NCBI GenBank assembly: GCA_002436105.1
Contig: DIXU01000017.1
Span: 26,015 to 90,014, forward strand
Reading direction: 5' to 3'
From: Candidatus Aminicenantes bacterium UBA6072
Lineage (GTDB): Bacteria; Acidobacteriota; Aminicenantia; UBA2199
DNA length: 64,000 nt
Shown: positions 6,006-56,075 of the stretch, piece after piece
Layout: every line of letters begins with the position of its first letter
How positions within the stretch are numbered: position 1 is the stretch's first letter
Notes under the pieces: generated by a model
Told to the model about the DNA's origin: nothing
Database searches by the model: none
Seen by the model: only the letters and a program-made list of their open reading frames with translations
Translations under genes and position numbers: made by a program

Positions 6006-6020
6006 GTCAAGGAGGATCCC

Positions 6021-8423
6021 ATGAGCAGAAATTATTTGAAATTGGCCCTGCGCGTTATCCGCCGCCAGAAGGGGTATTCGCTCATCAACACGATCGGCCT
6101 GGCCATCGGCATGGCCTGCTGCCTGCTGATCATGCTCTGGGTGCAAAACGAGCTTTCATATGATCGCTTCCATGATAAAGGAGACCGCATCTTCCGGGTG
6201 TTCCAGGAGCTCACCCTGAATGACCGGGTACGAACCGCCCCTGAAACTGGCGCCATGATGGGCCCGGCCGCAATCCAGTCGATTCCCGAGGCCGAAGCGG
6301 CCGCTCGCATCCTTCCCATGGCGGACACCACCGTCAAGTACGGCGAGAAGGAATTTCGCGAGAATCATATCCTGTTCACCGACTCGGAGATATTTTCCGT
6401 TTTCAGTTTTCCCCTGGTCTCCGGACATTCTGCTACGGCGTTGACGGCGCCCTATACGGTTGTGCTTTCCGAAAAGACGGCCCGCAAGTACTTCGGCGCC
6501 GAAAACCCGCTCGGTAAAGTGCTTCAATTTGGGGGCGGCCACGCGTATTCCGTCACCGGCGTCATGAAGGATGTGCCCCGCAATTCTCATTTGACGTTTG
6601 ACATTCTCTGCTCGTTCGCCAGCTATGCGAAAGAGAACGAATACAATGCGTCCTATTGGGGGAACATGGAGACGTATACCTATTTCTTGCTGGCTCCGGG
6701 GGCTGACAGCCGTTCTTTTCTGGCCAAGCTGAACCGCCTGAGCGACGAGAATATCGGCAATAAATTGAAGAAGATCAACGGAGGCCTGAAGGTATTCCTG
6801 CAGCCACTGCGCGACATTCACCTGCATTCGGGTTTTGAATCCGACATGGCCGAGATCAACGACATAAAGACCGTGATCCTGTTCTCCGGAATCGCCCTGT
6901 TCATCCTGCTTATCGCCTGCATCAATTTCATCAATCTCGCGACCGCCCGCTTCGCCAACCGCGCTTTGGAAGTGGGACTGCGCAAGACCATGGGCGCCAG
7001 CCGCAGCTCCCTGGTCCTGCACTTTTTCGTCGAGACGTTCGTTGTCGCCATGCTGGCCGCCGTACTGGCCATCCTGCTGACAGCCCTGGCCCTGCCCGTG
7101 CTGAATTCCATTGCCGGCCAGGAGTTCCCTTACTCCGCCCTCTCGCAGCCCCTCTTTCTCCTGAGCGTCTTCCTCTTCACGGCCATGGTCGGCGTTCTCG
7201 CCGGCAGTTATCCGGCCTTCTTCCTTTCCTCTTTCGCCCCGGTGCAGACCATGAAGGGCAAGCTCAAGGCCGGCGCGGCCAGCGCCACCTTCCGCAGGAT
7301 CCTGGTGGTCGGGCAGTTCACGGTCTCCATCGCCCTGATCATCGGCACCCTCACCGTTTTCAAGCAGCTCCGTTTCATCCAGAACAAAAATCTGGGATTC
7401 ACCAAGGAGCAGGTGATGGTGCTGCCGCTGCCCGATAGAATGGCGGTAACGCGGGAGACGGTGCGGGAGGAATTCGCCGCCGTAAATGGGATCACAAACG
7501 CGGCGATATCATCGGACGTACCGGGCGTTGACATCAACATGAACAATTACATTCCTCAAGGAAAAACCGAAAGCGAAGGGGTGCTGATGCAGACGATGGC
7601 TGTGGATGACCATTTCCTGACCACCTTGGGGATGACAATCGTGAAAGGCCGGAATTTTTCTGGGGACATGAAAACAGATGCCAACGAAGCCCTTCTGATC
7701 AACGAGACCGCCGCGGACCGCTTGGGCTGGCAGGACCCCATCGGGAAAATCGTGACCCGCCCCGCCTTCTCGAATGGAAAACACGTTTCTATTAAAAGGA
7801 AGATCGTGGGGGTGGTGAAGGACTTCCACACCCTTTCCCTGCATCAGAAGATCGAGCCCCTGGTCATGGACAACTCTTCTTGGGGATTGCGCTTTTTATC
7901 ACTGCGTTTTGAAGGCCAACGCCTTCCTGAACTCATCACTGCTGTGAAGGCAAAGTGGCGGCAATTCTTTCCCGCGATAGGTTTCGATCCTTTCTTTCTG
8001 GATGAGGCTTTCGCCCGGAGATACCAAGCCGAGGAACGGCTCAACAAGATCTTCAGCTCTTTTGCCATCCTGGCCATCTTCATTTCCTGCCTGGGATTGT
8101 TCGGCCTGGCCGCTTACATGACGGAGAGGCGGACCAAGGAGGTGGGCATCCGCAAGGTGCTCGGGGCGCCGGTTTCCGGCATCGTGCTTCTGTTGTCGCG
8201 TGAATTCAGCATATGGGTGCTGGCCGCCAACCTCGTCTCCTGGCCACTGGCCTATCATTTCCTCACCCGCTGGCTGGAAGGCTTCGCCTACCATGCCCGC
8301 ATCGGCATCGGCATCTTCCTGGTATCTGGCTTTTCCGTCCTGCTCATCGCCCTGCTGACCGTGAGTTTCCAGGCCATTCGCGCCGCCCGCGCCAACCCGG
8401 TCGACAGCCTGAGGTACGAATGA
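6021..8423 (+). CDS. MacB-like double-FtsX ABC permease (paralog)
   Basis: 800-aa ORF with the same architecture. GGAGG RBS upstream (caaggaggatcccATG). Confidence 0.85.
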   Translation: MSRNYLKLALRVIRRQKGYSLINTIGLAIGMACCLLIMLWVQNELSYDRFHDKGDRIFRVFQELTLNDRVRTAPETGAMMGPAAIQSIPEAEAAARILPMADTTVKYGEKEFRENHILFTDSEIFSVFSFPLVSGHSATALTAPYTVVLSEKTARKYFGAENPLGKVLQFGGGHAYSVTGVMKDVPRNSHLTFDILCSFASYAKENEYNASYWGNMETYTYFLLAPGADSRSFLAKLNRLSDENIGNKLKKINGGLKVFLQPLRDIHLHSGFESDMAEINDIKTVILFSGIALFILLIACINFINLATARFANRALEVGLRKTMGASRSSLVLHFFVETFVVAMLAAVLAILLTALALPVLNSIAGQEFPYSALSQPLFLLSVFLFTAMVGVLAGSYPAFFLSSFAPVQTMKGKLKAGAASATFRRILVVGQFTVSIALIIGTLTVFKQLRFIQNKNLGFTKEQVMVLPLPDRMAVTRETVREEFAAVNGITNAAISSDVPGVDINMNNYIPQGKTESEGVLMQTMAVDDHFLTTLGMTIVKGRNFSGDMKTDANEALLINETAADRLGWQDPIGKIVTRPAFSNGKHVSIKRKIVGVVKDFHTLSLHQKIEPLVMDNSSWGLRFLSLRFEGQRLPELITAVKAKWRQFFPAIGFDPFFLDEAFARRYQAEERLNKIFSSFAILAIFISCLGLFGLAAYMTERRTKEVGIRKVLGAPVSGIVLLLSREFSIWVLAANLVSWPLAYHFLTRWLEGFAYHARIGIGIFLVSGFSVLLIALLTVSFQAIRAARANPVDSLRYE

Positions 8424-8496
8424 TGGAGACCGGAGGCCGGAGACCGCAGACCGGAAGATGAAGGAAATCCAAAAAAGCTTGAGTCGTTAGGAGGCA

Positions 8497-8766
8497 ATGA
8501 TGAAAGAGATCACGTTGCAAATCCCCGTGCTGGAGGCCGAACAGAACGTCGAGATCGACGTGCGCATCAACGGCCGGCGCCAGGTGATGAAATACCGCGT
8601 CGAGATCGTGGAGTTCGAGCCCGACGCCGCGGAAAAGAAGGACACCGTCTCCATGCTCAAGCAGGTGATCCGCGAGCACGATCCCGACTGGCAGCTGGTG
8701 CAGATCGGCGCCCCGCTCGACCACAAGATCCCGGTCACCTTCCGCCGGAAGCAGTCTTCCCAGTGA
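8497..8766 (+). CDS. small acidic hypothetical protein (89 aa) inside the ABC cluster
   Basis: Strong RBS (taggaggcaATGATG). No signal peptide or TM helix. Normal amino-acid composition, unlike the GC-artefact ORFs elsewhere. No family recognised. Confidence 0.5.
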   Translation: MMKEITLQIPVLEAEQNVEIDVRINGRRQVMKYRVEIVEFEPDAAEKKDTVSMLKQVIREHDPDWQLVQIGAPLDHKIPVTFRRKQSSQ

Positions 8767-8959
8767 GCAACGAAGCCAATGTCCGGAAGCGGACACCCAT
8801 TGTCCCGATTGCGGACAAGCCGGGGCAACGGGAAACGGCCGCCCCGGAAGCGGGCCGCAAACCTTGCGCCCTGAAGGGTTTTCATCGCCGATTCCCGCTC
8901 CGAATTGGCATGCTTATTGCATGACAATGATTGGGAACGATCCCCAAGGAAGGTGGCGG

Positions 8960-9177
8960 ATGAGCCTTAAGGAAATACTCATGAAGCTGGTCGAACAAAA
9001 GAGCCCGCTATTGCTTTGCGACAGCCAGAGCGAATGGGAGGCCGAGTCGCTGCTGGGTTCATTGCCCGCGCCCAGGCTGTCGGCCTCCGCCTACCTGCAG
9101 CCGGGCCTGTATATCGCCGAGATCAACGAGGGCGGCTACCTGGGGCGGGTGCTGTACAAGCTCAAGGAGAAGCCGGC

Positions 9178-9181
<4 letters not shown>
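8960..9181 (+). CDS. small hypothetical protein (73 aa), translationally coupled to the ABC ATPase
   Basis: In-frame ATG at 8960 preceded by GGAAGGTGG. Its stop (9179-9181) overlaps the ATG of the ATPase gene as ATGA. The ORF track gives a longer 8864 start. Confidence 0.45.
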
Positions 9182-9912
<731 letters not shown>

Positions 9913-15530: not shown

Positions 15531-16925
15531 TCAGCGCACCCGGCCGCGCGCCAGCGAAAAGAAGACGCCGGTGGAGCACAACAGGAAGAAGATGATGAAT
15601 GACACGCGCATGCTCTTGAGGAAGAGCGCGTGATTGGCCGGGACGATGCTCGCCTTGCCGATGAACAGGGAGAAGACCAGGGTGGCCACGCCCATGCTCA
15701 GCATCTGGCCGACCATGCGCATGGTCCCCAGGGTGGCCGAGGCCACGCCGTACTGCCGGCGCCCGACGGCACCCATGACGGCGTTGGTGTTGGGCGAGGA
15801 GAACAGGGCGAAACCGAAGCCGACCAGCATCAGGTTGGCCACGATGGACGTCAGCCGGCTGGCCGGCCCCAGCCAGGTGAAGAAGAACAGGCCCAGGGCG
15901 CACAGGCCCATGCCCAGTGAGGCGACCACCCGCGGCTCCAGCCGGTCGGAAAGGCGGCCGGCGGCGGGGGAAAAGAGGGCCATGACCAGCGGCTGGGCGA
16001 TCAGCACCAGCCCGGCGTCGCGCGGGGTGAAGCCCATGACATACTGCAGGTAAAGGCTGAGCAGGAACGAGATGGCGAACGTGGCGCTGTAATTGACCAG
16101 CGCCGCCAGGTTGGAGAAGGCGAAAACGGTATTGCCGCGCACGAGCCGGGCCTGGAAAATGGGATGGGCATGGCGCGACTCCCAGGCGATGAAAACCGGG
16201 AGCGCCGTGGCCGCGGCCAACAGCATGGTCGCGCCGCGCCAGCCCGGCAGCCAGGTGAAACCGAGCATGAAGGCGGTGAGCATGGCGCTGTAGATCAGCG
16301 AGCCGATCCAGTCGAAAAGCTCGCCCCGGGAATCGGCCCATTCCGGCTTGAGCTTCCGGTGGACGACGGCCAGCACCAGCAGGCCGACGGGGACATTGAG
16401 CAGGAATACCCAGCGCCAGCCCAGATAGTGGGTCAGCAGACCGCCGACGAACGGGCCGAGCGAAAGGCCGGTATAGGTCGCGCCCACGTTGATGCCCAGC
16501 ACCCATCCGCGCCGCCGCGGCGGGAAGACCGAAGTGAGGATGGCCACGCCGGTGCCGAAGATCATGGCCCCGCCCGTTCCCTGCAGCAGGCGGGCCAGGA
16601 GGAGGGTGACCGTGCCGGGCGCCAGGGCGGCCAGCAGCGAGGCGGCGCTGAACACCGCCGTGCCGACGGTGAACACCTTCTTGCGGCCATGAATATCGGC
16701 CAAACGGCCGAAGGGCAGGAGGAAGACGGCCGCCGCCAGCAGGTAGGCGCTCGCCACCCAGCCCAGGGTGACGGCGCTCATGGCGAACTCGGCGCCGATG
16801 GCCGGCAGGGCGACGCTGATCGCCGAGGCCATCAGTGGCGTCAGCAGGGAGCTCAGTGTCGTGACCAGGAGCGTGGTGCGCTGCAGGGAACGGTCTTCGT
16901 TGCGGCTTTTTTCCATGGGCGGCAA
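15531..16925 (-). CDS. MFS transporter, DHA2 (EmrB/QacA-like, 14-TMS) family
   Basis: 464 aa. Conserved MFS motifs (GRLADIHGRKKV; LLQGTGGAMIFG) and 14 predicted TM segments. Confidence 0.8.
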   Translation of the reverse strand: MPPMEKSRNEDRSLQRTTLLVTTLSSLLTPLMASAISVALPAIGAEFAMSAVTLGWVASAYLLAAAVFLLPFGRLADIHGRKKVFTVGTAVFSAASLLAALAPGTVTLLLARLLQGTGGAMIFGTGVAILTSVFPPRRRGWVLGINVGATYTGLSLGPFVGGLLTHYLGWRWVFLLNVPVGLLVLAVVHRKLKPEWADSRGELFDWIGSLIYSAMLTAFMLGFTWLPGWRGATMLLAAATALPVFIAWESRHAHPIFQARLVRGNTVFAFSNLAALVNYSATFAISFLLSLYLQYVMGFTPRDAGLVLIAQPLVMALFSPAAGRLSDRLEPRVVASLGMGLCALGLFFFTWLGPASRLTSIVANLMLVGFGFALFSSPNTNAVMGAVGRRQYGVASATLGTMRMVGQMLSMGVATLVFSLFIGKASIVPANHALFLKSMRVSFIIFFLLCSTGVFFSLARGRVR

Positions 16926-17149
16926 TCGATTCTATCGCGCCGGATCATGGGTGTCAATGACTTGAATGGATCGAAGCGGGACGCCCCCGGTTGCCGCAGG
17001 ACGGAGGCAGCCAAGGAAGGATCTATCGTTATGCGTCAGGCGAAAGAACAAAAGAATGAAAAAAGCCTTGGGCGAGAGGCAAGGGGTGAGTGGCTAGAGG
17101 AAAGAAAGGCAATCGGTGTAAGGCGCAGGGCGGAGGGAAGATGACATTC

Positions 17150-17600
17150 CAACATAAAAGTTTAAAGTTTAAAGTAAAAAGTTTAAAGTAAGAAAAATTA
17201 CTTCATGGAAAAAAGGCGCTGAAAGGGCTTTTGTTTTAAAAATTGATATTCAGATCTGCATGCTCGATTGGAGAATACCTTTGCACAAAATTCCATTCTT
17301 CACTATCACTACCACTATCACTACCACTAAGACCTGTTAAGACCCATCAGGGGCATCACCACCTATCAGGCCTCCTGCTAACACTATCACTAACACTAAC
17401 ACTCGACTTTGTATTGCCCTGCTGACACTGACACTGTCACTGACACTTGCCTTGGCTTTCGTTTTGAAAATTGGAATTTGGATGTTGTTTGTTATTTGGT
17501 ATTTGGGATTTGGTATTTTAGTCTTCGTATTGCTTCTTCTCTTGCCGTAAACCGTCAACCGTCTACCTTAAACCGATTTCAATTCAAGACGATTGACGTT
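17150..17600. repeat. intergenic repeat island A: degenerate tandem 6-12-mers
   Basis: Tandem arrays read directly: AAAGTTTA x4 (17155-17195), CACTATCACTAC x2.5 (17301-17330), CTAACA/CTATCA (17378-17403), TGACAC/TGTCAC x4 (17423-17447), ATTTGGN array (17461-17520), AACCGTC-like module (17545-17580). Confidence 0.8.
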
Positions 17601-17607
17601 GCCTCGC

Positions 17608-18387
17608 CTATTCCGCTTCGCGGATCGCCTGCTCCAGCCGGGGATTGATCCGGGCTTTCAGCTTCCCGGCCCGCTCGAGCCACTCGCGCGCCTTGTCCAG
17701 TCGCCGGGTGACGAAATAGACGTTGATCAGGTTGTTCAGGCAGCGCTCGTGGGCGGGCTCAATGGCCAGCGCCAGCAGGTACTGGGCCTCGGCCTCGTCC
17801 AGGCGCCGCAGCTTGAAGAGGAGGTTTCCGTGCAGGGCATGAAACTCGGCCGGGATCTCGAAGGGGGAAGCGCCGTCCCCGATGACGTCGGCGGTGGCCC
17901 GGCCGGTCTTCTTGCTTTCATAGGCGCGATCCACGGAAACGCAGGCCAGGCTGCTGGTGCTGCCGCCGATGCTTTGGGCGGCGAGTTCGCGCATGCGTTT
18001 CTCGTCCTCCCTGGACATGGACAGCCAGTTCGTTTTCTGGTTCTTCCACACCTGCTGCATGGCGAGACAGCCATTCTCGGCCCGCTCGATCCAGGCCAGC
18101 GCCGCGGCGATCTCTCCCGCCTGGTTGGCGACCACTGCCTTTCCATAGGCGGCGTTGGGGTGCCCGGGCAGGATCGCCAGGCAACGGTCGAGTTCCTTCC
18201 CTGCCTGCTCCCAGTTCCCGGCCGCCGCCAGCTCGAGCCCGCTGTTCGCCGCCGGCAGGACCGAATGGTACTTGCGCAGCATCTCGATGTCCTGCTCCAG
18301 GCTGGTGTTCTTCTGGGCCGTGAGGGCCAGCGCGAGCAGGAAACACGCGCCGCCGGCGGAAACGAGCCGATGCTTGCCTTTCATCAT
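17608..18387 (-). CDS. TPR-repeat protein, secreted or periplasmic
   Basis: Signal peptide from MMKGKHRLVSAGGACFLLALALTA (alternative ATG at 18450 in the ORF track). TPR-like helical repeats. Confidence 0.6.
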   Translation of the reverse strand: MMKGKHRLVSAGGACFLLALALTAQKNTSLEQDIEMLRKYHSVLPAANSGLELAAAGNWEQAGKELDRCLAILPGHPNAAYGKAVVANQAGEIAAALAWIERAENGCLAMQQVWKNQKTNWLSMSREDEKRMRELAAQSIGGSTSSLACVSVDRAYESKKTGRATADVIGDGASPFEIPAEFHALHGNLLFKLRRLDEAEAQYLLALAIEPAHERCLNNLINVYFVTRRLDKAREWLERAGKLKARINPRLEQAIREAE

Positions 18388-18877
18388 GATCTCACCTGAA
18401 TGAATTATACCATACATTAGGTTCAAGCCAACCGCGGCAGCAGGAATCAAGACGATCCAAAAGTGCCAGAGATAGTGGTAGCGTTAGCGGGAACCAAGGA
18501 AATCGGTTTACGGAGGACGGTTTCCAAAGCAAAGAACAAGCGATTGTTGATGGGTAGAAGAGTAGAAGGGTTGATGGGTCAGCAGCCCTTGATTGGGCCA
18601 TGCCTGAACCCTTCAACTCTTGAACTCTTTAACTCTTCAACTTTTTTGTTTGGGTCAAAGTCCCTGCCCGGGGAAATGTTAGTGACAGTGTCAGCAGGAA
18701 ATGAAAGGAATCAATATGCGGTAGACGGTTGACGGGAAGAGAGGAATTTCACCTTCAACCTTACGCCCTGAACCTTACGCCAAGTTCCGTTCTGCCTCGT
18801 CACGCGTTTCGCGTTACGCGTCACGAAGATTTATTTTTTTTTCCTTCGCGTCACGCGTCACGATTTACCCTGGGGAG
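18388..18877. repeat. repeat island B (core 18525-18712), inverted partner of island D
   Basis: Core is near-identical (about 3 mismatches by eye over ~188 bp) to the reverse complement of 26634-26820. Flanked by GGTTTACGG/GACGGTT modules. CGTCACG heptamer arrays at 18800-18860. Confidence 0.85.
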
Positions 18878-19828
18878 TCAGAACAGCCGCTTCTGCTCCG
18901 GGGCTTCCCTGGCCGCCGCGGCGCGGATGACCGCAACGACCGGCCCGGCGCCGGCGGCGGGGTCCCAGGACACCGCGCCCCTGCGGATCAGCTCCCGGTT
19001 CCCCTCGGCAGGGCAGGAGAAGCAGGCGGGCGCGGCCGCGAACACGGGGATGCCGAGCTGGAAAGCAGCCCGGGCGGCGTTGAAGGAGCCGCTCATGCGC
19101 CGGTCGGCGTCGCGCTCGGGACCGGAGATGACCACGACCAGCGCGTCGGAGAGGGCGGCGACGATCCGGTTGCGCGCCATGGCCTGGAAGGCGGCCCACC
19201 TGGCGTCAGGGGCGAACTGGGAGACCACCAGGATGTTGTCCACCGCCAGATGCTCCTGCAGCTCGGGCCGGGTCTGGAAACGGTGCAGCCCCTCGGCCAA
19301 GACCAGGGTGGTCGTGCCGCCGGCGCGCAGGGCGGCCGCGTGGGCGGCGCTGTCGATCCCGGCGGCATAGCCCGAGACGACATTGGCTCCCCGCGCGGCC
19401 AGTCCGGCGGCCAGGGCAGCGGCGGCCGCCAGGGCATCCTCCCCGGCCTGGCGCTTGCCAACGATCGCCGCACCCGGTTGCTCCAGCAGGGCGACGTTGC
19501 CCCTCACGTACAGCAGCGCCGGCAGGGCGAGCTTTTCCTCCAGGATCCTGAGCCGTCGCGGGAAGTCGGGATGGAGAGGGTGCAGCAGGGTCACCTCCCG
19601 CCCGGGGAAACTCTCTCCGCCATCGCGCTCATGGAGAGTAAGATCGGGAATGGCGAAGCCCGCCCGGCTCACTCCCAGCGCTTCGCCCAGTTTTTCGGGG
19701 TGCTCGACAAGCCAGGAGGCCGCCAGACCCCTGCCTTCCAGGAAGGCGGCGATGCGCCACAGCGCCCTGGGCCCCAGCCCCCTGACGGCGGCCAAAGCGC
19801 GCCAGGCCCGGCCTTCGGGGGTGTTCAT
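18878..19828 (-). CDS. dprA: DNA processing protein DprA (Smf)
   Basis: N-terminal SAM-like region and Rossmann-fold core (GxAxGIDxxAH, VVISG-like motifs). Start MNTPEGRAW overlaps the upstream stop as ATGA. The ORF-track 529-aa version carries an Arg/Pro-rich artefactual extension. Confidence 0.8.
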   Translation of the reverse strand: MNTPEGRAWRALAAVRGLGPRALWRIAAFLEGRGLAASWLVEHPEKLGEALGVSRAGFAIPDLTLHERDGGESFPGREVTLLHPLHPDFPRRLRILEEKLALPALLYVRGNVALLEQPGAAIVGKRQAGEDALAAAAALAAGLAARGANVVSGYAAGIDSAAHAAALRAGGTTTLVLAEGLHRFQTRPELQEHLAVDNILVVSQFAPDARWAAFQAMARNRIVAALSDALVVVISGPERDADRRMSGSFNAARAAFQLGIPVFAAAPACFSCPAEGNRELIRRGAVSWDPAAGAGPVVAVIRAAAAREAPEQKRLF

Positions 19829-20421
19829 GACCTCGACCGCGTGTACGTCGCGGTGAGCACCGACACGCTGCCGGCCCGGCCGGCGAAGAGCAGGACGGCG
19901 GTCGCCGCCTTCAGAGTCTCGCCCGAGCGAAAGAGGTCGTCGAAAAGCAGCAAGTGCATGCCGGCGTAGCGTTGGTCGGCGACGGCAAAGGCTCCGTCCA
20001 GCTCCGAGCGGCGCTCGCGCGTATCCTCCATGTTCTTCAGCGCCGGCGTGGCCTTGGCCTTCAGCAGGTAGTCGTCGGGGGCGGGCAGGGAGAGCCCGGC
20101 GCCGATGGCCACCGCCAGCTCCGCGACGGGCTGGAATGCGCGATCCATGTTCGACGGCGGCACCGGCAGCACGGCGCGGATGCCGGCGAACTCGAGCCGG
20201 TTGCGGACGAAATCCGCCGCGGCGCGGGCGATGGGCTCGAGCTGGCCCCGATCCAGGCGGTATTTCAGGCGGTAGAGCGCCTCGCCGATCTCGCTGCGCT
20301 CGGTCGCGAAACGGTCGTACTTCGAGCGTTCGCCGTCCCCCGAGCGGCTGCTGAGCGTGTGCCGGTCGAGGGCCCAGCCATGGGCCCAGTTGCCGTAGAT
20401 CGGTTTGGGATTCAGTTCCAT
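19825..20421 (-). CDS. ComF/GntX-like phosphoribosyltransferase-domain protein (no zinc finger)
   Basis: PRTase motif LLLFDDLFRSGETLKAA near the C-terminus. Start MELNPKPIYG. Translationally coupled to dprA. The N-terminal Cys4 finger of canonical ComFC is absent. Confidence 0.6.
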   Translation of the reverse strand: MELNPKPIYGNWAHGWALDRHTLSSRSGDGERSKYDRFATERSEIGEALYRLKYRLDRGQLEPIARAAADFVRNRLEFAGIRAVLPVPPSNMDRAFQPVAELAVAIGAGLSLPAPDDYLLKAKATPALKNMEDTRERRSELDGAFAVADQRYAGMHLLLFDDLFRSGETLKAATAVLLFAGRAGSVSVLTATYTRSRS

Positions 20422-20589
20422 CTTGTCGCCAGGGATACATGATAATGGAATCGCTGCCGGGTGACAAGCGAGGGGGAACGGAAAGGAGAAGGCGATCGGT
20501 GCGAGGCGCAGGGCGACCGGTTCAGGGCCAGGGGGAAACATGGTCATGGCGGAAGGATGGAGGCGATTGGAAAAGACAAGCCAGGCCGG

Positions 20590-20898
20590 CTAATCTTCCA
20601 GCTGCACCTTGATTCCGCCGGTGATCGTTGTTACCAGGTTGAACAGGGCCGCGCCGATGAGGCCGGTGACAAAGCCGATCACGGCGTACATGACGGGCAG
20701 GATGATCAGCGCCGCCATGCCCAGGCCGGCACCGAAGGCGGGCAGGGCTTCGCTTCCTTCGATGAAGCGGCCGGCGAAAGCCTGCCAGAGGAAGCCGAAA
20801 AAGGCGATCATGACGCCGACCAGCAGGCCGACCATGGCCAGCAGCACGGTCTGGAACTTGGCGAACGACAGCACGTCGATCTTCTTCAATGTCTTCAT
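20590..20898 (-). CDS. small integral membrane protein (hypothetical, 3 TM)
   Basis: 102 aa. Three hydrophobic helices with Gly-zipper-like segments. No family recognised. Confidence 0.5.
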   Translation of the reverse strand: MKTLKKIDVLSFAKFQTVLLAMVGLLVGVMIAFFGFLWQAFAGRFIEGSEALPAFGAGLGMAALIILPVMYAVIGFVTGLIGAALFNLVTTITGGIKVQLED

Positions 20899-21026
20899 TT
20901 CAATTCCTCCTCGATGAAGTGAAACAAAAGGACCGCGGCGGCGTACGGCGAAGCGGATATCGCGAACGACTTCGGGGAAAATGACTGCGGCCGTTCGCCG
21001 GGTTCATTTCGCTGCGGCATGGAACC

Positions 21027-21743
21027 TCATTTTACAAAGCGATTGAAGGCCCGTTCTGCCCCGATGGTCGTCGCCGGGCCGTGGCCGGGAAGAACCCGGG
21101 TCAGCGGGGGCAAAGGCAGGAGGCGCTTGCGGATACTGTCGATTTCCAGCTGCAGGCTCGCCCGGCGCTGCCGGGGCGTACCGCCGTGGCCCTTGCCGAT
21201 GCCACCGGCAAAAAGGGTATCGCCGGAAAATAGTATGTTTCCCATCCTGAGGCAGACGCTCCCCGGTGAATGCCCGGGCGTGCGGATGATCTCGACCTCC
21301 AGCCCGCCCAGCCGCAGGCGGCCATCCTCGGGATAATCGCTGAAAACGATCGCCGGGCCGGTGGTTTTCGCCGCCAGGGAGTGGTCGGCGCGGTGCAGGT
21401 AAAAAATTGTCTCCAGCCTGGCGGCGATGTAGGCGTTGCCGCCGACATGGTCGAAATGGCCGTGGGTGTTCAGGACGGCCAGCACGCGGAGCCCCTGCTT
21501 CTGGACGAAGTCCAGCAGCCCCGGGGCGGGGGCGCCGGGATCGATGACCAGCGCCTGCCTTGTGCCGGGGTCCCAGGCCAGGTAGCAGTTCATCTCCCAG
21601 CCGCCGTCCAGGGGCAGGGCAAAGGCCTTGACTTGCGGGCCGGCCGCCGCTTCCTCGAAGAACCCGAGAGCGGGGTCGGTTTGGGCCGCGAGGCCCGCTT
21701 CCAGGAAGCCCAGGAGCGGAACGATCCACAATAACCGCATCAT
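21027..21743 (-). CDS. MBL-fold metallo-hydrolase (hydroxyacylglutathione hydrolase-like), secreted
   Basis: HGHFDHVGG metal-binding motif and TPGHSPGS. Signal peptide from MMRLLWIVPLLGFLEA. The ORF-track N-terminal extension is rejected. Confidence 0.75.
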   Translation of the reverse strand: MMRLLWIVPLLGFLEAGLAAQTDPALGFFEEAAAGPQVKAFALPLDGGWEMNCYLAWDPGTRQALVIDPGAPAPGLLDFVQKQGLRVLAVLNTHGHFDHVGGNAYIAARLETIFYLHRADHSLAAKTTGPAIVFSDYPEDGRLRLGGLEVEIIRTPGHSPGSVCLRMGNILFSGDTLFAGGIGKGHGGTPRQRRASLQLEIDSIRKRLLPLPPLTRVLPGHGPATTIGAERAFNRFVK

Positions 21744-22258
21744 GGCAGGTATGTACCACGGCGGCGCCCGGTTGTCAAAAAATGGAATCGACCGGGCACT
21801 TGAAAAACGACCCATGAATCGTGAGGCGATATTTTGGCCGAGCTGTTGTCCGTTTCTGTGCACTTCCGCTTTTGACCTTTCACCATGCTGGCTGCCGTCC
21901 ACCGCCGGCCATGCGCTGCAAGCCAGGCTCGAATCTTCCCGGTCCGTTGCATTTTCATCCCCGTCCTCCTACAATACAGCCATGGACGAAAACAACAAGA
22001 ACTTCTTCTGGGGCGTGCTCCTCGGCGCCGTGGCGGCGGCTTTGGCCGGAGCCGTGGCATTGTCCAGATCGTTCCGCGGGTCCAAGGACGGCGCGAAGAC
22101 ATTCGCGCCTGCCGCAGGGAGAAAAGGCGGGCCGGCTCCGCGCCGTTCCAGGTCGTCAACGGGCCCGGCGAAAAAAAACGTCCGCCGCAAGGCCTAGCCG
22201 GAAAGCACCGCAACGGCCGGGCGGCGGGATAATTTCATTCAAAAAACTCTGACCGTCA

Positions 22259-22288
22259 TTAACCCTTTGGCCGCCGGGGCCGTATTAT
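22259..22288 (+). promoter_or_regulatory. possible promoter of the tricorn-like gene (TTAACC-18-TATTAT)
   Basis: Weak -35, good -10, 43 nt upstream of ATG 22332. Confidence 0.3.
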
Positions 22289-22331
22289 GGACAATGGCTC
22301 CGAAAACCACATCACTTCTTGGAGGACACCC

Positions 22332-25300
22332 ATGAGACCATCCATCAACAAGGCCCTGAGATCATTCTGCGCTGCGTTCCTTTTCGCCTGGATCCTGGGG
22401 GCGCTGCCGCTCCCGGCGCAGGACCAGCCCCTGTGGCTGCGTTACCCGGCGATCTCCCCCGACGGTTCCAGCATTCTCTTCTGCTACCAGGGCGACATCT
22501 ACAAGGTGCCCGCCGCCGGCGGCCAGGCCGTGCCCCTGACCATCGGCGAATCCCACGAGTTCGCCCCGGTCTGGAGCCACGACGGCCGAACCATCGCCTT
22601 CGCCTCCGACCGCCACGGCAGCTTCGACGTCTTCGTCGTTTCCGCCGCCGGCGGCGAAGCCCGGCGCCTGACCTTTCATTCGCGCAACGATATCCCCAGC
22701 GGCTTCAGCGCCGACGACCGGAGCGTCCTTTTCAACCAGGTGCGCAAGGACCTGGCCAGCGACGCCCAGTTCCCGACCCCGGCCCTGCCGGAGCTCTACA
22801 GCGTCCCGGTGCAGGGCGGCGAGATCGCGCTGGTCCTGACCCACGCGGCGATCGCGGCCAAGGTCAGCCCGGACGGCAACAGGATCATCTACCACGACCA
22901 GAAGGGCTACGAAAGCGACTGGCGCAAGCATCACACATCCGCCGTGACCCGCGACATCTGGGTCCATGACCTGAAGGCCAACAAGTATACCCGACTCACC
23001 TCGTTCAATGGCGAGGACCGCAATCCCGTGTTCGCCGCCAACGGCGACGATTTCTACTACCTGAGCGAGCAGAGCGGATCGTTCAACATCCGCAGGAGCT
23101 CGCTGAGCAAGCCGGCGGAATCCCTCGCCCTGACCCACTTCACGAAAAATCCCGTCCGCTTCCTGAGCCGCGCCGATACCGGCCGCCTCTGCTTCGGGTA
23201 TGACGGCGAGATCTACACCCTCGATGCCGGGGCCATGCCGCACCGGGTCGACGTGCGCATCGCGCAGGACGGCCGGCAGGTCCTGGCCAAGCCCGTTCCG
23301 GTCGCCGGCGGCATCACGCAGATGCGCCTTTCGCCCAACGGCAAGGAGATCGCCTACGTCTTCCGCGGCGAGATCTTCGTCGGCAGCGTCGAGGGCGGCG
23401 TCGGCAAGCGCATCACCCATACTCCCGGGCAGGAGCGCAGCGTGAGCTTCAGCCCCGACGGCCGCAGCCTGGTCTACGCGGCCGAGCGCGACAACAACTG
23501 GAACGTTTACACCACCTCGATCGCGCGCAAGGAAGAGCCGTACTTTTACGCCGCCACCCTCCTCAAGGAGGAGCCGCTGGTGGCGACCGCGGCCGAGGAG
23601 TTCCAGCCCGAGTTCTCGCCCGATGGCAAGGAGGTGGCCTACATCGAGGACCGGGTCGTGCTCAGGGTGATCAACCTGGCCTCGCGGCAGACGCGGACGA
23701 TCCTGCCCGCCGAGCACAACTATTCCTATGCCGACGGCGACCAGGACTATGCCTGGAGCCCCGACGGCAAGTGGTTCCTGGTGCAGTTCGGCTACGTCCG
23801 CCTGTTCACCGCCCAGGTCGGGCTGGTCGCCAGCGACGGCAAGGGACAGGTCGTCAACCTGACCCGGAGCGGCTTTGACAGCATCGGCGCCCGCTGGGGC
23901 ATGGACGGCGCCATGATGTTCTACGGCTCCACGCGCGACGGCGCGGCCAATGTTTCCGGCTCGCCGGTGACCTACGACATCTACGGCATGTTCTTTACCC
24001 GCGAGGCCCATGACCGCTTCCTGCTCTCCAAGCCCGATTTCGCCCTGCTGAAGGAACAGGAGGACAAGGTCGCGAAGGACAAGGAGAAAGCCGGGGACAA
24101 AAAGGCGGCGACCGCCCGGGACGAGCCGAAGAAGGACATCGTCATCGAGCTGGCGGGCCTGGACCAGCGCAAGGTCCGGTTCACCGTCCGTTCCGCCGAT
24201 ATCGCCGGCGCCGCGCTCAGCCGGGACGGAGAGAAGCTCTTCTACCTGGCCCGGTTCGAGAAGGGCTACGACCTGTGGCAGGCCGAGCTGCGTGCGAAAG
24301 AGACTAAGCTTTTGACCAAGCTCAACGCCGAGCGGGCGGCCATGGAACTTAGCGCCGACGGCAAGGCCCTGTTCGTGCTGGCCGAAGGCAGGGTCAGCAA
24401 GATCGACCCCGAGAGCGGCAAGGCCGAGCCCGTCGCCATCGGCAATGAAATGTTCCTCGATGCCGGCGCCGAAAAGGCCTACATGTTCGATCACATGTGG
24501 CGGCAGATCCGGCAGAAGTTCCTGGTCGCCGACCTCTACGGCGCCGACTGGGATTTCTACCATGCGACCTATCGCAAGTTCCTCCCCTTCATCAACAACA
24601 ACTACGACTATGCCGAGATGGTCAGCGAGATGCTCGGAGAGCTGAACGCCTCACACACCGGATGCTACTACTCCCCGCCGCGCGCGCCCGAGGCCGATGC
24701 CACCGCCTCCCTGGGATTTTTCCGCGACTACGTCCACGCGAGCCCGGGCATCCGCATCGCGGAGATCCTGCCCGGCGGCCCGCTCGACAAGGCCGCCCTG
24801 CGCATCCGCGCCGGCCACGTGATCGAGAAGATCGACGGCGCGGCCCTGGACGGCAGCTTTGACCACGACCGGCTGTTGAACCGCAAGGCCGGCCAGCTCA
24901 CCCTGCTCTCGGTGTTCGATCCGGCCGCGAAGCAGCGCTGGGAAGAGACGGTCAAGCCCATTGCCCTGAACGAGGAGGCGCCGCTGGTGTACCGCCGCTG
25001 GGTGCGCGCCCGCCGCGCCGAAGTCGAGCGTCTCTCCGGCGGCCGCATCGGCTACGTCCACGTGCGCGGCATGAACGACGCCAGCATGCGCACTGTGATC
25101 GAGGAGGTGCTCGGCCTGAGCATCGACAAGGAAGCACTGATCGTCGACACGCGCTTCAACGGCGGCGGCAACCTCCATGACCAGCTGGCCGACTTCCTCG
25201 CCGGCAGGAAGGTCTTCGACATCGTCCCCCGCGGCCAGCTCGTCGGCTACGAACCCTACGACAAGTGGATCAAGCCCTCCATCGTCGTGATGGGAGAGGG

Positions 25301-25595
25301 CAATTACTCCGACGCCCACCTGTTCCCGGTGGAATACAAGATCCGCGGCATCGGCAAGACGCTGGGAATGCCCGTGCCCGGCACGGGGACGTTCGTCTGG
25401 TGGGAACAGCAGATCGACCCGACCCTGCGCTTCGGCATCCCCCAGGGCGGCTGGCGCACCCCGGAGGGTATACTCTGCGAGAACAACCAGCTCGAGCCCG
25501 ATATCCCGGTCAGGAACGATCCCGACGTCCTGGCGCTCGGGCGCGACCAACAGATCGAGGCGGCAGTAGCAGAGCTGTTGAAAGAAAAGAAGTGA
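22332..25595 (+). CDS. tricorn-protease homolog (TolB-like beta-propellers, PDZ, S41 C-terminal peptidase)
   Basis: ~1090 aa. Signal peptide. Repeated PD40/WD-like blades (SPDG…, IAF/YxS). C-terminal S41-like catalytic region. GGAGG RBS before ATG at 22332. Confidence 0.65.
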   Translation: MRPSINKALRSFCAAFLFAWILGALPLPAQDQPLWLRYPAISPDGSSILFCYQGDIYKVPAAGGQAVPLTIGESHEFAPVWSHDGRTIAFASDRHGSFDVFVVSAAGGEARRLTFHSRNDIPSGFSADDRSVLFNQVRKDLASDAQFPTPALPELYSVPVQGGEIALVLTHAAIAAKVSPDGNRIIYHDQKGYESDWRKHHTSAVTRDIWVHDLKANKYTRLTSFNGEDRNPVFAANGDDFYYLSEQSGSFNIRRSSLSKPAESLALTHFTKNPVRFLSRADTGRLCFGYDGEIYTLDAGAMPHRVDVRIAQDGRQVLAKPVPVAGGITQMRLSPNGKEIAYVFRGEIFVGSVEGGVGKRITHTPGQERSVSFSPDGRSLVYAAERDNNWNVYTTSIARKEEPYFYAATLLKEEPLVATAAEEFQPEFSPDGKEVAYIEDRVVLRVINLASRQTRTILPAEHNYSYADGDQDYAWSPDGKWFLVQFGYVRLFTAQVGLVASDGKGQVVNLTRSGFDSIGARWGMDGAMMFYGSTRDGAANVSGSPVTYDIYGMFFTREAHDRFLLSKPDFALLKEQEDKVAKDKEKAGDKKAATARDEPKKDIVIELAGLDQRKVRFTVRSADIAGAALSRDGEKLFYLARFEKGYDLWQAELRAKETKLLTKLNAERAAMELSADGKALFVLAEGRVSKIDPESGKAEPVAIGNEMFLDAGAEKAYMFDHMWRQIRQKFLVADLYGADWDFYHATYRKFLPFINNNYDYAEMVSEMLGELNASHTGCYYSPPRAPEADATASLGFFRDYVHASPGIRIAEILPGGPLDKAALRIRAGHVIEKIDGAALDGSFDHDRLLNRKAGQLTLLSVFDPAAKQRWEETVKPIALNEEAPLVYRRWVRARRAEVERLSGGRIGYVHVRGMNDASMRTVIEEVLGLSIDKEALIVDTRFNGGGNLHDQLADFLAGRKVFDIVPRGQLVGYEPYDKWIKPSIVVMGEGNYSDAHLFPVEYKIRGIGKTLGMPVPGTGTFVWWEQQIDPTLRFGIPQGGWRTPEGILCENNQLEPDIPVRNDPDVLALGRDQQIEAAVAELLKEKK

Positions 25596-25750
25596 AGACC
25601 TAAGTGACGAGTGACAAGTGACGAGGAACAGCCTGGTTCGAGTTCTTGCGGCTTTCTTCCCTTGTCCCTTGTTGCTTGGCACTTGTCACCAGGATTAGTC
25701 CCGATCAGGCGCTGGGTTGCCAATCGTTCTGCCGCCGGCTAGAATGAGCC
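25596..25750. repeat. repeat island C: AAGTGAC heptamer array with partial inverted partner
   Basis: taAGTGACgAGTGACaAGTGACgag at 25601-25625. Inverted cttGTCACc / ttgtcccttgttgc downstream. Confidence 0.7.
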
Positions 25751-26551
25751 ATGGAAAGAAAGCCCCTGGACGGCGGCATGCTATTCTTTGATGCCCGGGA
25801 CAATGAGGCGGCCGAATGGATGGGCGCCGCCGCCGAGGAGTCGCAGCGCCTGGCCCGCGAACTCTGGGGACTGGCGCCGCGGGGCGAGTTCCAGGTACAC
25901 GCCATGACCTCGTGGGCCGGATTTCTCTTCGCCGCCGCTCCCGGGGCTTGGCGCCCTTGGCTGCTCCTCACCCTGCCCCTGTGGGTCTCCCGGGTCACAA
26001 AGACCTGGAGAATGGCCGGAGGCTGGACGCAGCGCTTCGGCAGCAGGGTGGCGGTGGGTGTCAAGCCGCCGCGCCTGCTTCTGGCCGCCGACCGCTCCCT
26101 GGGCAAGCGGCTTTTCCTGTCCGAGCCCGACGTGCAGGGCAAGGTGCGGCAGATCACCTGGCACGAGACGGTCCATGCCTGCTCGCTCCATCACAAGCTC
26201 CCTGCCTGGCTGAATGAGGGGCTGGCCATGTTTGCCGTCGACCGGCTCGCAGGCATGCCGACCGTCCGTCCCGAGACCCTGTCCTGGATGACAACGGCCA
26301 ATGCCTCCGGCGGGCGCCGCTATCCCGCCCACTCCCATGACCGGGCCGGGACCTTTCTGCGTCTCTATGCCCAGGGATATTGGCGGGTACGTTTCCTGGA
26401 AGAGACGCGCCCGGGGCTGCTAAAGGAGCTCCTGTCGGCGAAATACGATTCAGACGAGTGGCTGCGGTCATTCGCCAAGGCCTGCGGGCTTGGTGATGGC
26501 GCCGGCTGGGCGGAAGTGGACCTGTCTGTGGCCAGGCACTTCGAGCAATAG
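25751..26551 (+). CDS. peptidase-MA-like zinc metalloprotease (HExxH…NEGLA)
   Basis: HETVH followed by LNEGLAMF, matching the gluzincin-like Peptidase_MA_2 motif pair. Confidence 0.5.
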   Translation: MERKPLDGGMLFFDARDNEAAEWMGAAAEESQRLARELWGLAPRGEFQVHAMTSWAGFLFAAAPGAWRPWLLLTLPLWVSRVTKTWRMAGGWTQRFGSRVAVGVKPPRLLLAADRSLGKRLFLSEPDVQGKVRQITWHETVHACSLHHKLPAWLNEGLAMFAVDRLAGMPTVRPETLSWMTTANASGGRRYPAHSHDRAGTFLRLYAQGYWRVRFLEETRPGLLKELLSAKYDSDEWLRSFAKACGLGDGAGWAEVDLSVARHFEQ

Positions 26552-26892
26552 CACCCGGTGTGCGTCGCGCGGCTTAAGGCATTAGGTGGAATTCCTTTCT
26601 TCCCTTAAACCGTAAGCCTTCTACCTTAAACCGATTCCTTTCATTTCCTACTGACACTGTCACTAACATTTCCCCGGGCAGGGACTTTGACCCAAACAAA
26701 AAAGTTGAAGAGTTAAAGAGTTCAAGAGTTGAAGGGTTCAGGCAGGGCCCAATCAAGGGCTGCTAACCCATCAACCCTTCTACTCTTCTACCCATCAACA
26801 ATCGCTTGTTCTTTGCTTTGAAAACCGTCGACCGTCAACCGATTTCTAGTACAGCCAATGACGCTGATACCGTTACTGGCACTTACTGCACG
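26552..26892. repeat. repeat island D (core 26634-26820), inverted partner of island B
   Basis: The reverse complement matches island B core almost base-for-base. Flanked on both sides by direct copies of the CTTAAACCG…AACCGATT(C/T)C module. Confidence 0.85.
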
Positions 26893-34196: not shown

Positions 34197-34656
34197 CCTT
34201 TCCATCTCTCCCCCCTTAATATAACCATAACCCCCACCCTACAAAAACACCCCCCCCGCTACATGGGGGGGGCCCGCCTTTTGTCATTGCCAGCAGATGG
34301 AATCGGTTTACGGTAGACGGTTTACGGTAGACGGGAAGAGAAGAGGCAATAGGAAGACTAAAATCCCAAATCACAAATTCCAAATCCCAAATAAATTCCA
34401 AACTCCAAATTCCAATTTCCAAAACGAAAACCAAGGCAAGTGTCAGTGACGGTGTCAGTAGGAGCCTTGGAATACGTTCTTGCTCTTTCGTTTCAACGTT
34501 TTAACGCTGCAACACTTCAACGATTTATGTTCCATTGACCCTTCAATTCATCACCGAGTTCGGGATCTTCGTTTGGGTCATTTGGTAATTGAAATTTGGT
34601 GCTTGTTTGGGATTTGGAATTTGGTGCTTGGAATTTAATTCTTCACATGTCACGCG
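34197..34656. repeat. repeat island E: composite with internal long inverted repeat
   Basis: Left part (34298-34462) is the reverse complement of island A 17421-17585 at roughly 80-85% by eye. Right part carries ATTTGGN arrays that are the inverse of the left AAATNCCA arrays. CGTCACG heptamers at 34650-34680. Confidence 0.8.
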
Positions 34657-35160
34657 TCACGCGTTACGCGTCACGACAGATCCTCCCTTTGCTGCCGCTG
34701 ACCGCAAACAGCCGGGCTCGTCTCCTGTCTTTTCCAGGATAATGGTCACCGGCCCGTCATTGACCGAGCGCACCTGCATCATGGCGCCGAATTCCCCTGC
34801 CGCGACCGGGACGACGTCCCGCAGCAGCGAGTTGAAGCGCTCATAGAGCTCCCGGGCGCGGCCGGGCTCCTCGGCATGGGTGAAGTCTGGACGCCTCCCC
34901 TTCCTGTTGCGCGCTGCCAGGGTGAACTGCGAGACCGAGAGTACGCCGCCTCGCACCTGCCGGACATCGAGGTTCATCCTCCCCGCTTCGTCGGCGAAGA
35001 CGCGCAGGTGCAGGACCTTGTCGGCCATGAAGGCGATCTCCCCCTCGCCGTCGCCCTTTTCAATGCCCACCAGCAGGAGCAATCCCCGGCCGATGCGGGC
35101 GATCTCGCGCCCCACGACGTCGACGCCGGCCTCCGCGACCCGCTGGATCACTACGCGCAT
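34657..35160 (-). CDS. dtd: D-aminoacyl-tRNA deacylase Dtd
   Basis: MRVVIQRV… start, SQFTLAA motif and MQVxxVNDGPVT. The C-terminus runs ~20 aa into the repeat island. Confidence 0.8.
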   Translation of the reverse strand: MRVVIQRVAEAGVDVVGREIARIGRGLLLLVGIEKGDGEGEIAFMADKVLHLRVFADEAGRMNLDVRQVRGGVLSVSQFTLAARNRKGRRPDFTHAEEPGRARELYERFNSLLRDVVPVAAGEFGAMMQVRSVNDGPVTIILEKTGDEPGCLRSAAAKGGSVVTRNA

Positions 35161-55158: not shown

Positions 55159-55250
55159 TCGGATCTAAGTGACAAGTGACTAGTGACAAGTGACAAGTGA
55201 CAAGGAACATCAATCGAACGAGCGATTACCGTTTTTCGCCTCGTTACTCG
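55159..55250. repeat. repeat island G: AAGTGAC heptamer arrays forming a hairpin between convergent genes
   Basis: taAGTGACaAGTGACtAGTGACaAGTGACaAGTGACaag … cgttactcgttacttGTCACtcGTCACtg. Inverted arms with ~40-nt spacer, between the kinase stop and the mutM stop. Confidence 0.8.
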
Positions 55251-56075
55251 TTACTTGTCACTCGTCACTGATCTCATCTTCTGACAGTCAGGGCAATAAT
55301 GGCTGGAACGGCCATTGATGCGGATCTTATCGATGGCTGTGCCGCAGGCCGGGCAGGGTTCGCCGGCGCGGCCGTAGACGTTGAGATGCTCCCGGTTTTC
55401 GCCGCTCTCATCGGCTACGGTGCGGTAGTTGCGGAGGGTGGTTCCCCGACGGCGGATGGCCTGGCGCAGGACCTGGGGAATGACCGACGCCAATCGCCGT
55501 TGCTGCCCATCGCTCAGGGAGGCGGCGGGAGTCAAAGGATGCGTGCCGGCCAGGAACAATGCCTCGTCAGCGTAGATGTTGCCGATGCCGGCCAGGATGG
55601 TCTGATCGAGCAATGCGCTCTTGACGGGCCTCTTTGTTTTCAGATGCTTCAGAACCCGGCGCACGGTCTCCGCACGCAGCGGCTCGGGGCCCAGCCCAGG
55701 GCAGGACTCGCCGCGGCAGGGCCACAGGTGCAGTCGGCCGAACTTGCGGGCATCGACGAAATAAAGCTTCGTGCCGTCGGTGAAGGTGAATTGCAGGCGC
55801 AAATGCCTGCGGTCGGCCGCGCCGAGCTCCATCACCAGCTTGCCGGTCATGCGCAGGTGGACGGTGAAAAAAGTGCCGTCCGCGCCCTCGACGCCGATGT
55901 ACTTGCCGCGCCGGGCCACGGCAGCCACGGCCATGCCCCTGACGCGGTGGCGGAATTCCTTTGGCACGCCTTCGACCGAGCGCGGCCAGAACAGGCGCAG
56001 GGCGGAGATGGTTTTCCCTTCGATCTGCGGGCGCAGCTGGCGGACGATGGTTTCCACTTCGGGCAGCTCGGGCAT
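55251..56075 (-). CDS. mutM: formamidopyrimidine-DNA glycosylase
   Basis: MPELPEVETI N-terminus, H2TH region, C-terminal CxxC…CxxC zinc finger. Confidence 0.85.
   Translation of the reverse strand: MPELPEVETIVRQLRPQIEGKTISALRLFWPRSVEGVPKEFRHRVRGMAVAAVARRGKYIGVEGADGTFFTVHLRMTGKLVMELGAADRRHLRLQFTFTDGTKLYFVDARKFGRLHLWPCRGESCPGLGPEPLRAETVRRVLKHLKTKRPVKSALLDQTILAGIGNIYADEALFLAGTHPLTPAASLSDGQQRRLASVIPQVLRQAIRRRGTTLRNYRTVADESGENREHLNVYGRAGEPCPACGTAIDKIRINGRSSHYCPDCQKMRSVTSDK

Follow-up and report, generated by a model that had tools for sequence, protein, structure and literature searches.

The 64,000-nucleotide stretch of Candidatus Aminicenantes bacterium UBA6072 analysed here (contig DIXU01000017.1; hereafter, the window) carries two copies of a non-coding cassette of about 190 bp, in opposite orientation and on either side of a block of genes that includes dprA and a tricorn-like protease. 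Comparison with related genomes indicates that one of these copies was gained recently in the window's lineage, and the sequences around it make it very probable that the cassette was copied into an intergenic slot that already existed. We explain the pair by the non-reciprocal copying, through microhomology in short flanking modules (M1), of a low-copy, portable, terminator-like cassette; taken as a whole, this explanation is modestly favoured by the evidence. The part of it that gives the cassette a role as a terminator or at 3′ ends, suggested by sequence features, is plausible but short of probable. The cassette is best read as part of an undescribed mosaic of heptad repeats in the intergenic DNA of this lineage.

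A near-identical inverted pair

An inverted-repeat search returned two arms of 237 nt, at 18499–18735 (plus strand, copy A) and 26610–26846 (minus strand, copy B), that are 94% complementary and separated by 7,874 nt, so that the inverted pair first noticed in a reading of the sequence alone is real. That sequence-only reading had put the difference between the two cores at about three bases by eye. A MAFFT alignment of the cores (18525–18712 in copy A, 26634–26820 in copy B) gives exactly three mismatches over 188 nt (18580 C/T, 18600 A/C, and 18695 C/T, copy A/copy B), an identity of 98.4% that stands well above the limit of 90% set for calling the copies near-identical. All remaining mismatches of the arms fall within the flanking M1 modules. 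A 27-mer from the core matches the window exactly twice, once on each strand, and was never found in 100 shuffles.

An assembly artefact is ruled out as the source of the pair. Contigs from two JGI metagenomes (L001/L019 and L002) cross copy B at 100% identity, and a third JGI contig (L017) reaches into copy A from the side of the TPR gene, with the alleles of that copy.

The second copy occupies a site that is empty in two relatives

Orthologous loci were retrieved through homologues of the tricorn gene. At site A, between the TPR gene and dprA, three independent assemblies of the UBA2199 lineage (L009, L010, and L011) contain the core, and the site is likewise filled in L005; the core is absent in L012, which has a short unrelated spacer, and in L013, which has a different modular element ('family 2', see below) like that at 34460–34690 of the window. 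At site B, which separates the peptidase-MA-like gene from the beta-lactamase-family gene, only the window's strain has the core; no relative has it, and the arm is missing in L009–L013.

The empty site shows what the core replaced. In L009 and L012, site B consists of one M1 module (M1a), 14 nt of GACTGCCTTGAGAT-like sequence, and a second module (M1b). In the window both modules recur as native M1a and M1b, identifiable by their particular substitutions, and the core stands where L009 and L012 have the 14 nt. M1a of copy B (26822–26846, minus strand) is the native anchor next to the stop codon of the beta-lactamase-family gene; it is conserved in L009, L012, L013, and L015, and the sequence beyond it differs in each lineage. 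M1b of copy B (26610–26638, minus strand) is of the same sequence type as M1b of the L009 empty site. Both junctions lie inside M1, the left within about 23 nt of imperfect identity and the right within about 11 nt (GAATCGGTTTA). No terminal inverted repeats are present, the ends of the element being direct copies of M1, and there is no target-site duplication, since both modules already stand at the empty site of L009 and L012 and 14 nt were replaced.

Identity of the tricorn gene places L009 and L012 nearest to each other (94.3%), with the window next, so that copy B is most parsimoniously read as gained in the lineage of the window. The near-identity of the cores had suggested recent copying or gene conversion, and an empty site in two relatives bears this out. 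Moreover, because the M1 modules pre-exist at that site, they form a slot and are not a by-product of insertion. We also considered that the relatives might have lost the core by deletion, and rejected this: recombination between the two modules would leave a single M1, not M1, a conserved 14 nt, and M1 again in two lineages.

Anatomy of the cassette and its flanking modules

Copy A, read on the plus strand, lies in the sense orientation. It opens with M1a (18499–18523, GAAATCGGTTTACGGAGGACGGTTT), recognised from the sequence and by pattern search as a run of GGTnnAC heptads, and an A-rich stretch (approximately 18524–18545) leads into the stem, the 3′ part of this stretch (18537–18545) forming the basal pairs of the hairpin. 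The hairpin is imperfect and spans 18537–18652, with 45 bp that include five G–U pairs. Its 5′ arm is built of four 8-nt units, GTTGATGG GTAGAAGA GTAGAAGG GTTGATGG, and its 3′ arm of the units ...CTTCAAC TCTTGAAC TCTTTAAC TCTTCAAC. Directly 3′ of the stem is a T-run of the form T6GT3 (TTTTTTGTTT, 18642–18651), followed by a conserved tail of about 60 nt (18652–18706) with GGGTCAAAGTCCCTGCCCGGGGAAATG and a palindrome, M3, of sequence TGACAGTGTCA (18683–18693). A degenerate M1b (18707–18735, GGAATCAATATGCGGTAGACGGTTGACGG) closes the arm. The corresponding parts of copy B are a hairpin at 26693–26808, a T-run at 26694–26703, and M3 at 26651–26663.

Folding favours the sense strand (−58.3 kcal/mol, with a fold z-score of −3.6) over the antisense strand (−41.9 kcal/mol), and the antisense strand of the element also ends T-rich (CGCTTGTTCTTTGCTTTGG). 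Of the differences between the copies, 18580 C/T keeps its pair with G18606, which passes from G–C to G–U, and 18600 is unpaired. In L014, nhmmer finds a diverged homologue of the hairpin (E = 2e-6) immediately past the tricorn gene; it still folds, with five pairs changed on both sides and two G–U pairs kept.

The cassette does not encode a protein: the sole long open reading frame (ORF), of 89 amino acids in copy A, is broken by a TAG codon in copy B and in UBA2199, two of the three copies, and a six-frame pseudo-protein of the core found no match at E ≤ 1 among 5.8 billion proteins. Rfam 15 gave no match at the gathering threshold over the whole window; at E ≤ 10, a search of 16900–18900 returned only miRNA-like hairpin noise of at most 22 bits.

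Each core is flanked, as had been noted, by direct modules of the type AACCGTC...AACCGATTTC. The general form of M1 is GAAATCGGTTKACGG-NN-GACGG with two to five GGTnnAC units, and the pattern AATCGGTTKAMGG occurs six times in the window against 0.24 expected. In the relatives, M1 stands at both conserved and variable positions; unlike the core, it is truly dispersed. Further modules lie at 17557–17580 (minus strand; inverted relative to M1a of copy A and found by repeat and pattern search) and at 34299–34335 (plus strand, pattern search), where M1 heads a family-2 element. Sites resembling M3 number seven in the window, against 0.7 expected.

Conservation and copy number

The core is far better conserved across species than the genes that surround it. 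Between the window and UBA2199, the copy-A core differs at one of 188 positions (99.5% identity), whereas 146 of 1,036 four-fold sites in four flanking genes differ (14.1%; P ∼1e-11 for the core). The core region is the best conserved 200 nt of the 10-kb UBA2199 alignment, with 198 of 200 positions identical against about 90% in genes, and other intergenic DNA in this alignment is 10–66% identical. All three known copies are within one or two substitutions of a common sequence, which is that of UBA2199. Judging from these comparisons, either the whole 190 nt would be under unusually strong constraint or the ancestor of the copies would be much younger than the genomes, two readings that are compatible with one another. 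A young ancestor would mean that the cassette moved recently between lineages as well as within the window's lineage, and such recent spread is favoured because close relatives do without the cassette and because its identity extends even to the loops and tail.

The core occurs twice in the window and once in the UBA2199 metagenome-assembled genome (MAG), where it lies in the middle of a contig of 124.8 kb; near-identical copies must be few in this MAG because such a contig would not otherwise have assembled. A core 21-mer, searched against 185,579 GTDB species representatives, matched in one place only, the Candidatus Aminicenantes MAG UBA2199, a scan that is biased toward single-copy instances because fragmented short-read MAGs lose repeats present at least twice. 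Where copy number could be checked, then, the hundreds of identical copies that would have made this an ordinary dispersed repeat were not seen. For the window's strain, Logan k = 31 contigs end at 18554, 26680, and 26791, each exactly 30 nt past the last base that distinguishes copies A and B; these ends fit two copies but set no bound, because extra copies would give the same break points. Against metagenome contigs a core 20-mer gave three chance matches in unrelated sequence, the strain's JGI samples evidently lying outside that collection. There was no match to the core in IMG/VR and none to the arm, by blastn, in plasmid and phage collections.

One Logan contig, present in seven samples, starts at 18771 and not at 18665 as the two-copy model predicts. 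Position 18771 is the first base of the second unit of a local direct repeat, AACCTTACGCC (18753–18781), and an 18-nt slippage polymorphism of this repeat in the population would make the assembly graph branch exactly there.

Chromosomal setting

The window is an ordinary housekeeping region of a Candidatus Aminicenantes chromosome and is syntenic with the UBA2199 MAG at about 89.5% nucleotide identity. Before copy A come MacB/FtsX permease paralogues, a peptidase M90 gene, an MFS transporter gene, and the TPR lipoprotein gene. The enclosed block covers 7.7 kb (18878–26551) on mixed strands, its genes being labelled by Pfam and motifs: dprA, a ComF-like gene, a DUF3566-like small membrane protein gene, and an MBL hydrolase gene on the minus strand, and the tricorn-like S41 protease and peptidase-MA-like genes on the plus strand. 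The minus strand beyond copy B carries a beta-lactamase-family hydrolase gene, backed by Pfam, a GFO/IDH oxidoreductase gene, lpxI, lpxA, fabZ, ompH, and bamA. Of the labels given in the sequence-only reading, dprA, MBL hydrolase, and tricorn-like protease are supported by Pfam, whereas ComF-like and peptidase-MA rest on motifs because they have no Pfam match at 1e-3.

Both copies are extragenic. Copy A separates the 3′ end of dprA from the promoter of the TPR gene itself, both neighbouring genes being on the minus strand, and copy B lies between the convergent 3′ ends of the peptidase-MA-like and beta-lactamase-family genes. A promoter within the element was considered and rejected: the sole sigma-70-like site, TTGGCT-16-TATAAT (18431–18404, minus strand), is that of the TPR gene and falls outside the element, and the promoter reading also fails because copy B sits between two 3′ ends.

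No transposase, integrase, recombinase, or invertase was found among the ORFs scanned, a set that leaves aside the long permease ORFs, the RND-type/efflux ORFs, and 57716–61207, or in the precomputed Pfam annotations of the called genes in the block and its surroundings. The ends of the segment, moreover, are non-coding arms of 237 nt, not insertion sequences, and the earlier judgement that this is not a composite transposon stands.

The first 12,540 nt of the window hold four to five tandem MacB/FtsX-type ABC permease paralogues of about 800 amino acids each; these share patches of 60–85% identity, and an ABC ATPase gene lies within the array. The TPR lipoprotein gene (17608–18387) lies between inverted M1 modules at 17557–17580 and 18499–18522 (24 nt, 88%) and is missing from L015, as if M1 also bounded gene-sized presence/absence differences. 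In L012, three extra genes, for a Rce1-like protease, a flavodoxin, and a TetR regulator, stand between the ComF-like and DUF3566-like genes (5600–8450), further evidence that the block's gene content turns over at intergenic repeat sites. In the more distant L015 (tricorn 83% amino acid identity), the dprA–ComF–DUF3566 genes at 7480–9498 (window 18877–20911) stand in reverse orientation with respect to the MFS and tricorn genes, one end of the inversion falling at site A, and the MBL and peptidase-MA genes are absent along with the TPR gene; from this rearrangement it appears that the region has been rearranged at its intergenic repeats over longer times.

Intergenic repeats elsewhere in the window

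The cassette is surrounded by other modular repeats. An outer inverted pair at 17411–17581 and 34298–34475 (108–118 nt, 81–84%) belongs to family 2, which consists of M1, GGGAAGAGAAGA, hairpin arms of 7-nt CCAAAT/ATTTGG units, and M3. This pair encloses about 16.7 kb, including the entire block between copies A and B, and thus gives nested inverted repeats. Elements of the family-2 type are also present at site A of L013 and at site B of L015.

The intergenic segments 16930–17600, 18740–18870, and 34340–34700 have a G+C content of 40–50%, against about 68% in genes, and consist mostly of degenerate arrays of 6–8-nt units: AGTTTAA, CACTAY, GACACT, ATTTGGN, ACGCGTC, and CCTTACG. Apart from M1, the short tandem modules confined to intergenic DNA in the window include ACGCGTC, CCTTACG, GTGACNA, ATTTGGN, and the hexamer CACTAN.

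Comparable hairpins with heptad arms follow other genes of the window. Two are built of GTGACNA heptads, one at 25585–25694, directly after the tricorn stop codon, and one at 55165–55274, where the Ser/Thr kinase and fpg genes converge; the arms of the two hairpins are alike (36 nt, 83%), and the former is stabler on the strand of its upstream gene (−41.9 against −32.8 kcal/mol). By contrast with these long A+T-rich heptad hairpins, a C8/G8 hairpin (CACCCCCCCCGCTACATGGGGGGGGC, 34246–34275) right after a Zn-ribbon gene resembles a canonical G+C-rich terminator stem. A full-text literature search found no published description of intergenic repeats of Aminicenantes.

Origin and function of the cassette

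We propose that in the window's strain a sequence of the copy-A type was the donor in a recent non-reciprocal copying event, which may have proceeded by gene conversion, template switching, or break repair. The recipient would have been the existing slot of two M1 modules 14 nt apart, with both junctions resolved within M1. Because the slot at site B is inverted, copy B would have come to lie inverted, and this alone would yield an inverted repeat bracketing a gene block. As for function, the hairpin, A-rich before and T-rich after, might act at the RNA level as a largely bidirectional terminator or 3′-end stabiliser. At site B, the −58 kcal/mol hairpin and U6GU3 share a strand with the beta-lactamase-family operon, and the cassette would act for both transcription units that converge there, peptidase-MA and beta-lactamase/lpx/bamA; at site A, where the sense strand has no upstream gene, it would stand between the end of the dprA operon and the TPR promoter.

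Several observations weigh against this account. The terminator scanner does not call the hairpin, whose loop and stem exceed the scanner's limits, and at site A the stabler sense strand lies outside any known mRNA, given the orientation of both neighbours. The 60-nt tail is as conserved as the hairpin and is left unexplained by a terminator. In relatives without the core, site B already has a smaller native hairpin (GGCTTAAGG...CCTTAAGCC), so that the cassette is dispensable there. At 11 nt, the junction homology is short for RecA-type recombination, and a dedicated enzyme may be involved. The 99.5% identity across species, finally, would seem to fit recent lateral spread better than vertical descent, and the copying model alone leaves it unexplained. 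Whether the strand preference of the hairpins follows gene orientation can be read at few places, most sites in the window being convergent, and the two informative ones disagree: the tricorn hairpin agrees with its gene and copy A does not.

A wider interpretation, which we regard as unlikely, is that M1 modules are recombination slots and the core is one of several interchangeable cassettes, the others being the family-2 elements of L013 and L015, with M1 directing movement both within genomes and between related species. The cassette would then be a non-autonomous mobile element of very low copy number, without terminal inverted repeats or target duplication, and the 99.5% identity of the core despite 14% neutral divergence would be accounted for.

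The same conservation, which makes the core the best preserved 200 nt of the UBA2199 alignment (198/200), could instead mark a structured small RNA gene or a cis-acting RNA under strong purifying selection, of which copy B would be a functional duplicate. The strand-asymmetric hairpin with its G–U pairs, the variant that keeps its pair, the sense-strand z-score of −3.6, the U-run after the hairpin, and the retention of the L014 hairpin with some compensatory changes all suit such an RNA. We nevertheless think it has little chance of being correct: the core is dispensable, since L012 and L013 lack it at site A and every relative lacks it at site B; neither copy has a promoter-like site ahead of its sense strand; Rfam has no match; covariation is anecdotal because only one diverged homologue is known; and 99.5% identity that extends to loops and tail exceeds what selection on RNA usually achieves at 14% neutral divergence, so that recent ancestry fits better. 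Presence/absence polymorphism at both sites among close relatives and near-identical copies in two species would also suit a non-autonomous transposon, REPIN-, PATE-, or MITE-like (MITE, miniature inverted-repeat transposable element), that targets M1 (...GGTTTAC) and is moved by a transposase encoded elsewhere (RAYT or an IS200/IS605-type Y1 enzyme). The two inverted arms that form an extragenic hairpin of about 110 nt are REPIN-like, the junctions lie at a fixed motif that contains TTAC, and L014 has the diverged hairpin at another locus. The cassette, however, has direct M1 ends without terminal inverted repeats or target-site duplication, replaced 14 nt instead of simply inserting, and is present at only two copies in 64 kb and one in the UBA2199 MAG, with no Y1 or other transposase in the ORFs and annotations screened and no match in the plasmid, phage, or IMG/VR collections; we consider the transposon reading decidedly improbable.

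The sequence-only reading had also pointed to inversion of the segment between the arms. At 237 bp, with 98.4% identity over the 188-bp core, the inverted arms are long enough for RecA-mediated inversion, which would break no gene, the arms being intergenic, and the inverted dprA–ComF–DUF3566 genes of L015 show that rearrangement has occurred nearby over evolutionary time. So much of the suggestion holds in principle. That the pair exists to invert the 7.9-kb segment, or regularly does so as a recombinational switch, is very hard to credit, however. All of the few junction-spanning assemblies of the strain (L001/L019, L002, L017, and the window) have the reference orientation, with arm alleles unmixed; the syntenic relatives L009–L013 share this orientation, with or without the repeat, and in L009, L012, and L013 the enclosed block keeps the same order and orientation. 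Since relatives with one copy or none keep the gene order, the orientation of the block is independent of the pair. The L015 inversion has other end points, no invertase or integrase lies near or within the block (Pfam, block and flanking genes), and copy B is a recent accident of one lineage. Inversion, possible in principle and unsupported, would be incidental and not what the pair is there for.

Comparison with known systems

The copying we propose resembles ectopic gene conversion, in which tracts are transferred non-reciprocally by way of flanking homology and near-identical copies arise against a diverged background. Unlike in ordinary ectopic conversion, the homologies here are imperfect and of only about 11–23 nt, and intragenomic conversion leaves the near-identity across species unexplained. 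In having a stable hairpin with a T-run directly after it and an A-rich tract before it, the cassette is like a Rho-independent bidirectional terminator; its stem is far longer than that of canonical terminators (45 bp) and poorer in G+C, and the 60-nt conserved tail has no place in them. Unlike Hin/Gin/Fim-type invertible segments or a shufflon, the segment between the two copies has no recombinase adjacent or inside (by Pfam, in the block and flanking genes).

By analogy, the cassette appears to behave like mosaic repeats of the REP/BIME/REPIN or BOX type: it lies outside genes, forms a hairpin, is modular, and varies in its presence. Small modular intergenic repeats with strong predicted RNA structure occur in Streptococcus pneumoniae (BOX elements) and in Neisseria (Correia/NEMIS elements); they number some 100 copies or more, may be transcribed together with adjacent genes, and can influence mRNA stability or termination. 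Correia elements also have a TA duplication and terminal inverted repeats. Compared with these, the cassette is low in copy number and has neither terminal inverted repeats nor a TA duplication, and because it lacks terminal inverted repeats and any duplication it is not a MITE. For REP, BIME, and REPIN sequences, roles in termination and in the protection of mRNA 3′ ends have been proposed. With these the cassette shares its extragenic, non-coding nature, a long hairpin of inverted arms, a mosaic arrangement with short motifs, and a position that is often between convergent genes. The REPINs of Proteobacteria consist of two inverted REP units that form an extragenic hairpin (Bertels & Rainey, 2011, PMC3116915), and the 45-bp hairpin in intergenic DNA corresponds to this description. 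REP and REPIN sequences, however, come in tens to hundreds of copies with a cognate RAYT, whereas here only one or two copies are seen and the 64 kb yielded no RAYT; the cassette's arms are made of 8-nt periodic units and bounded by direct heptad modules, and its gain replaced a spacer. As far as can be seen, it is too rare for a REPIN.

Intergenic heptamer arrays are known from the STRR sequences of heterocystous cyanobacteria and from the TAACTGA repeats of Beggiatoaceae, the latter mostly just upstream of start codons (MacGregor, 2015, PMC4679880). M1 and the other modules of the window are likewise short tandem arrays of 6–8-nt units confined to intergenic DNA, a likeness that holds for the flanking modules and not for the core. 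Here, unlike in those systems, many heptads coexist, often as complementary arms of long hairpins, and they bound exchangeable cassettes.

Biological significance

For the window's genes, the finding means that the pair is the by-product of a recent small duplication and not a switch for dprA, the tricorn-like protease, and their neighbours. Cassette repeats of this kind split short-read assemblies at predictable positions and are therefore under-represented in MAGs. If an enzyme drove the exchange of cassettes between M1 slots, small non-coding DNA would be moving by a new route; if only microhomology repair is involved, the locus would be a clean natural example of short dispersed repeats seeding larger inverted repeats, and repeats so seeded create substrates for later chromosomal inversions. 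The part most worth keeping is the slot-and-cassette behaviour of heptad-bounded elements, together with the identity of the core across species. In Aminicenantes, an uncultured phylum, intergenic DNA appears to draw on a small alphabet of 6–8-nt periodic modules and long hairpins, both exchanged in fixed slots between species that are still about 90% identical.

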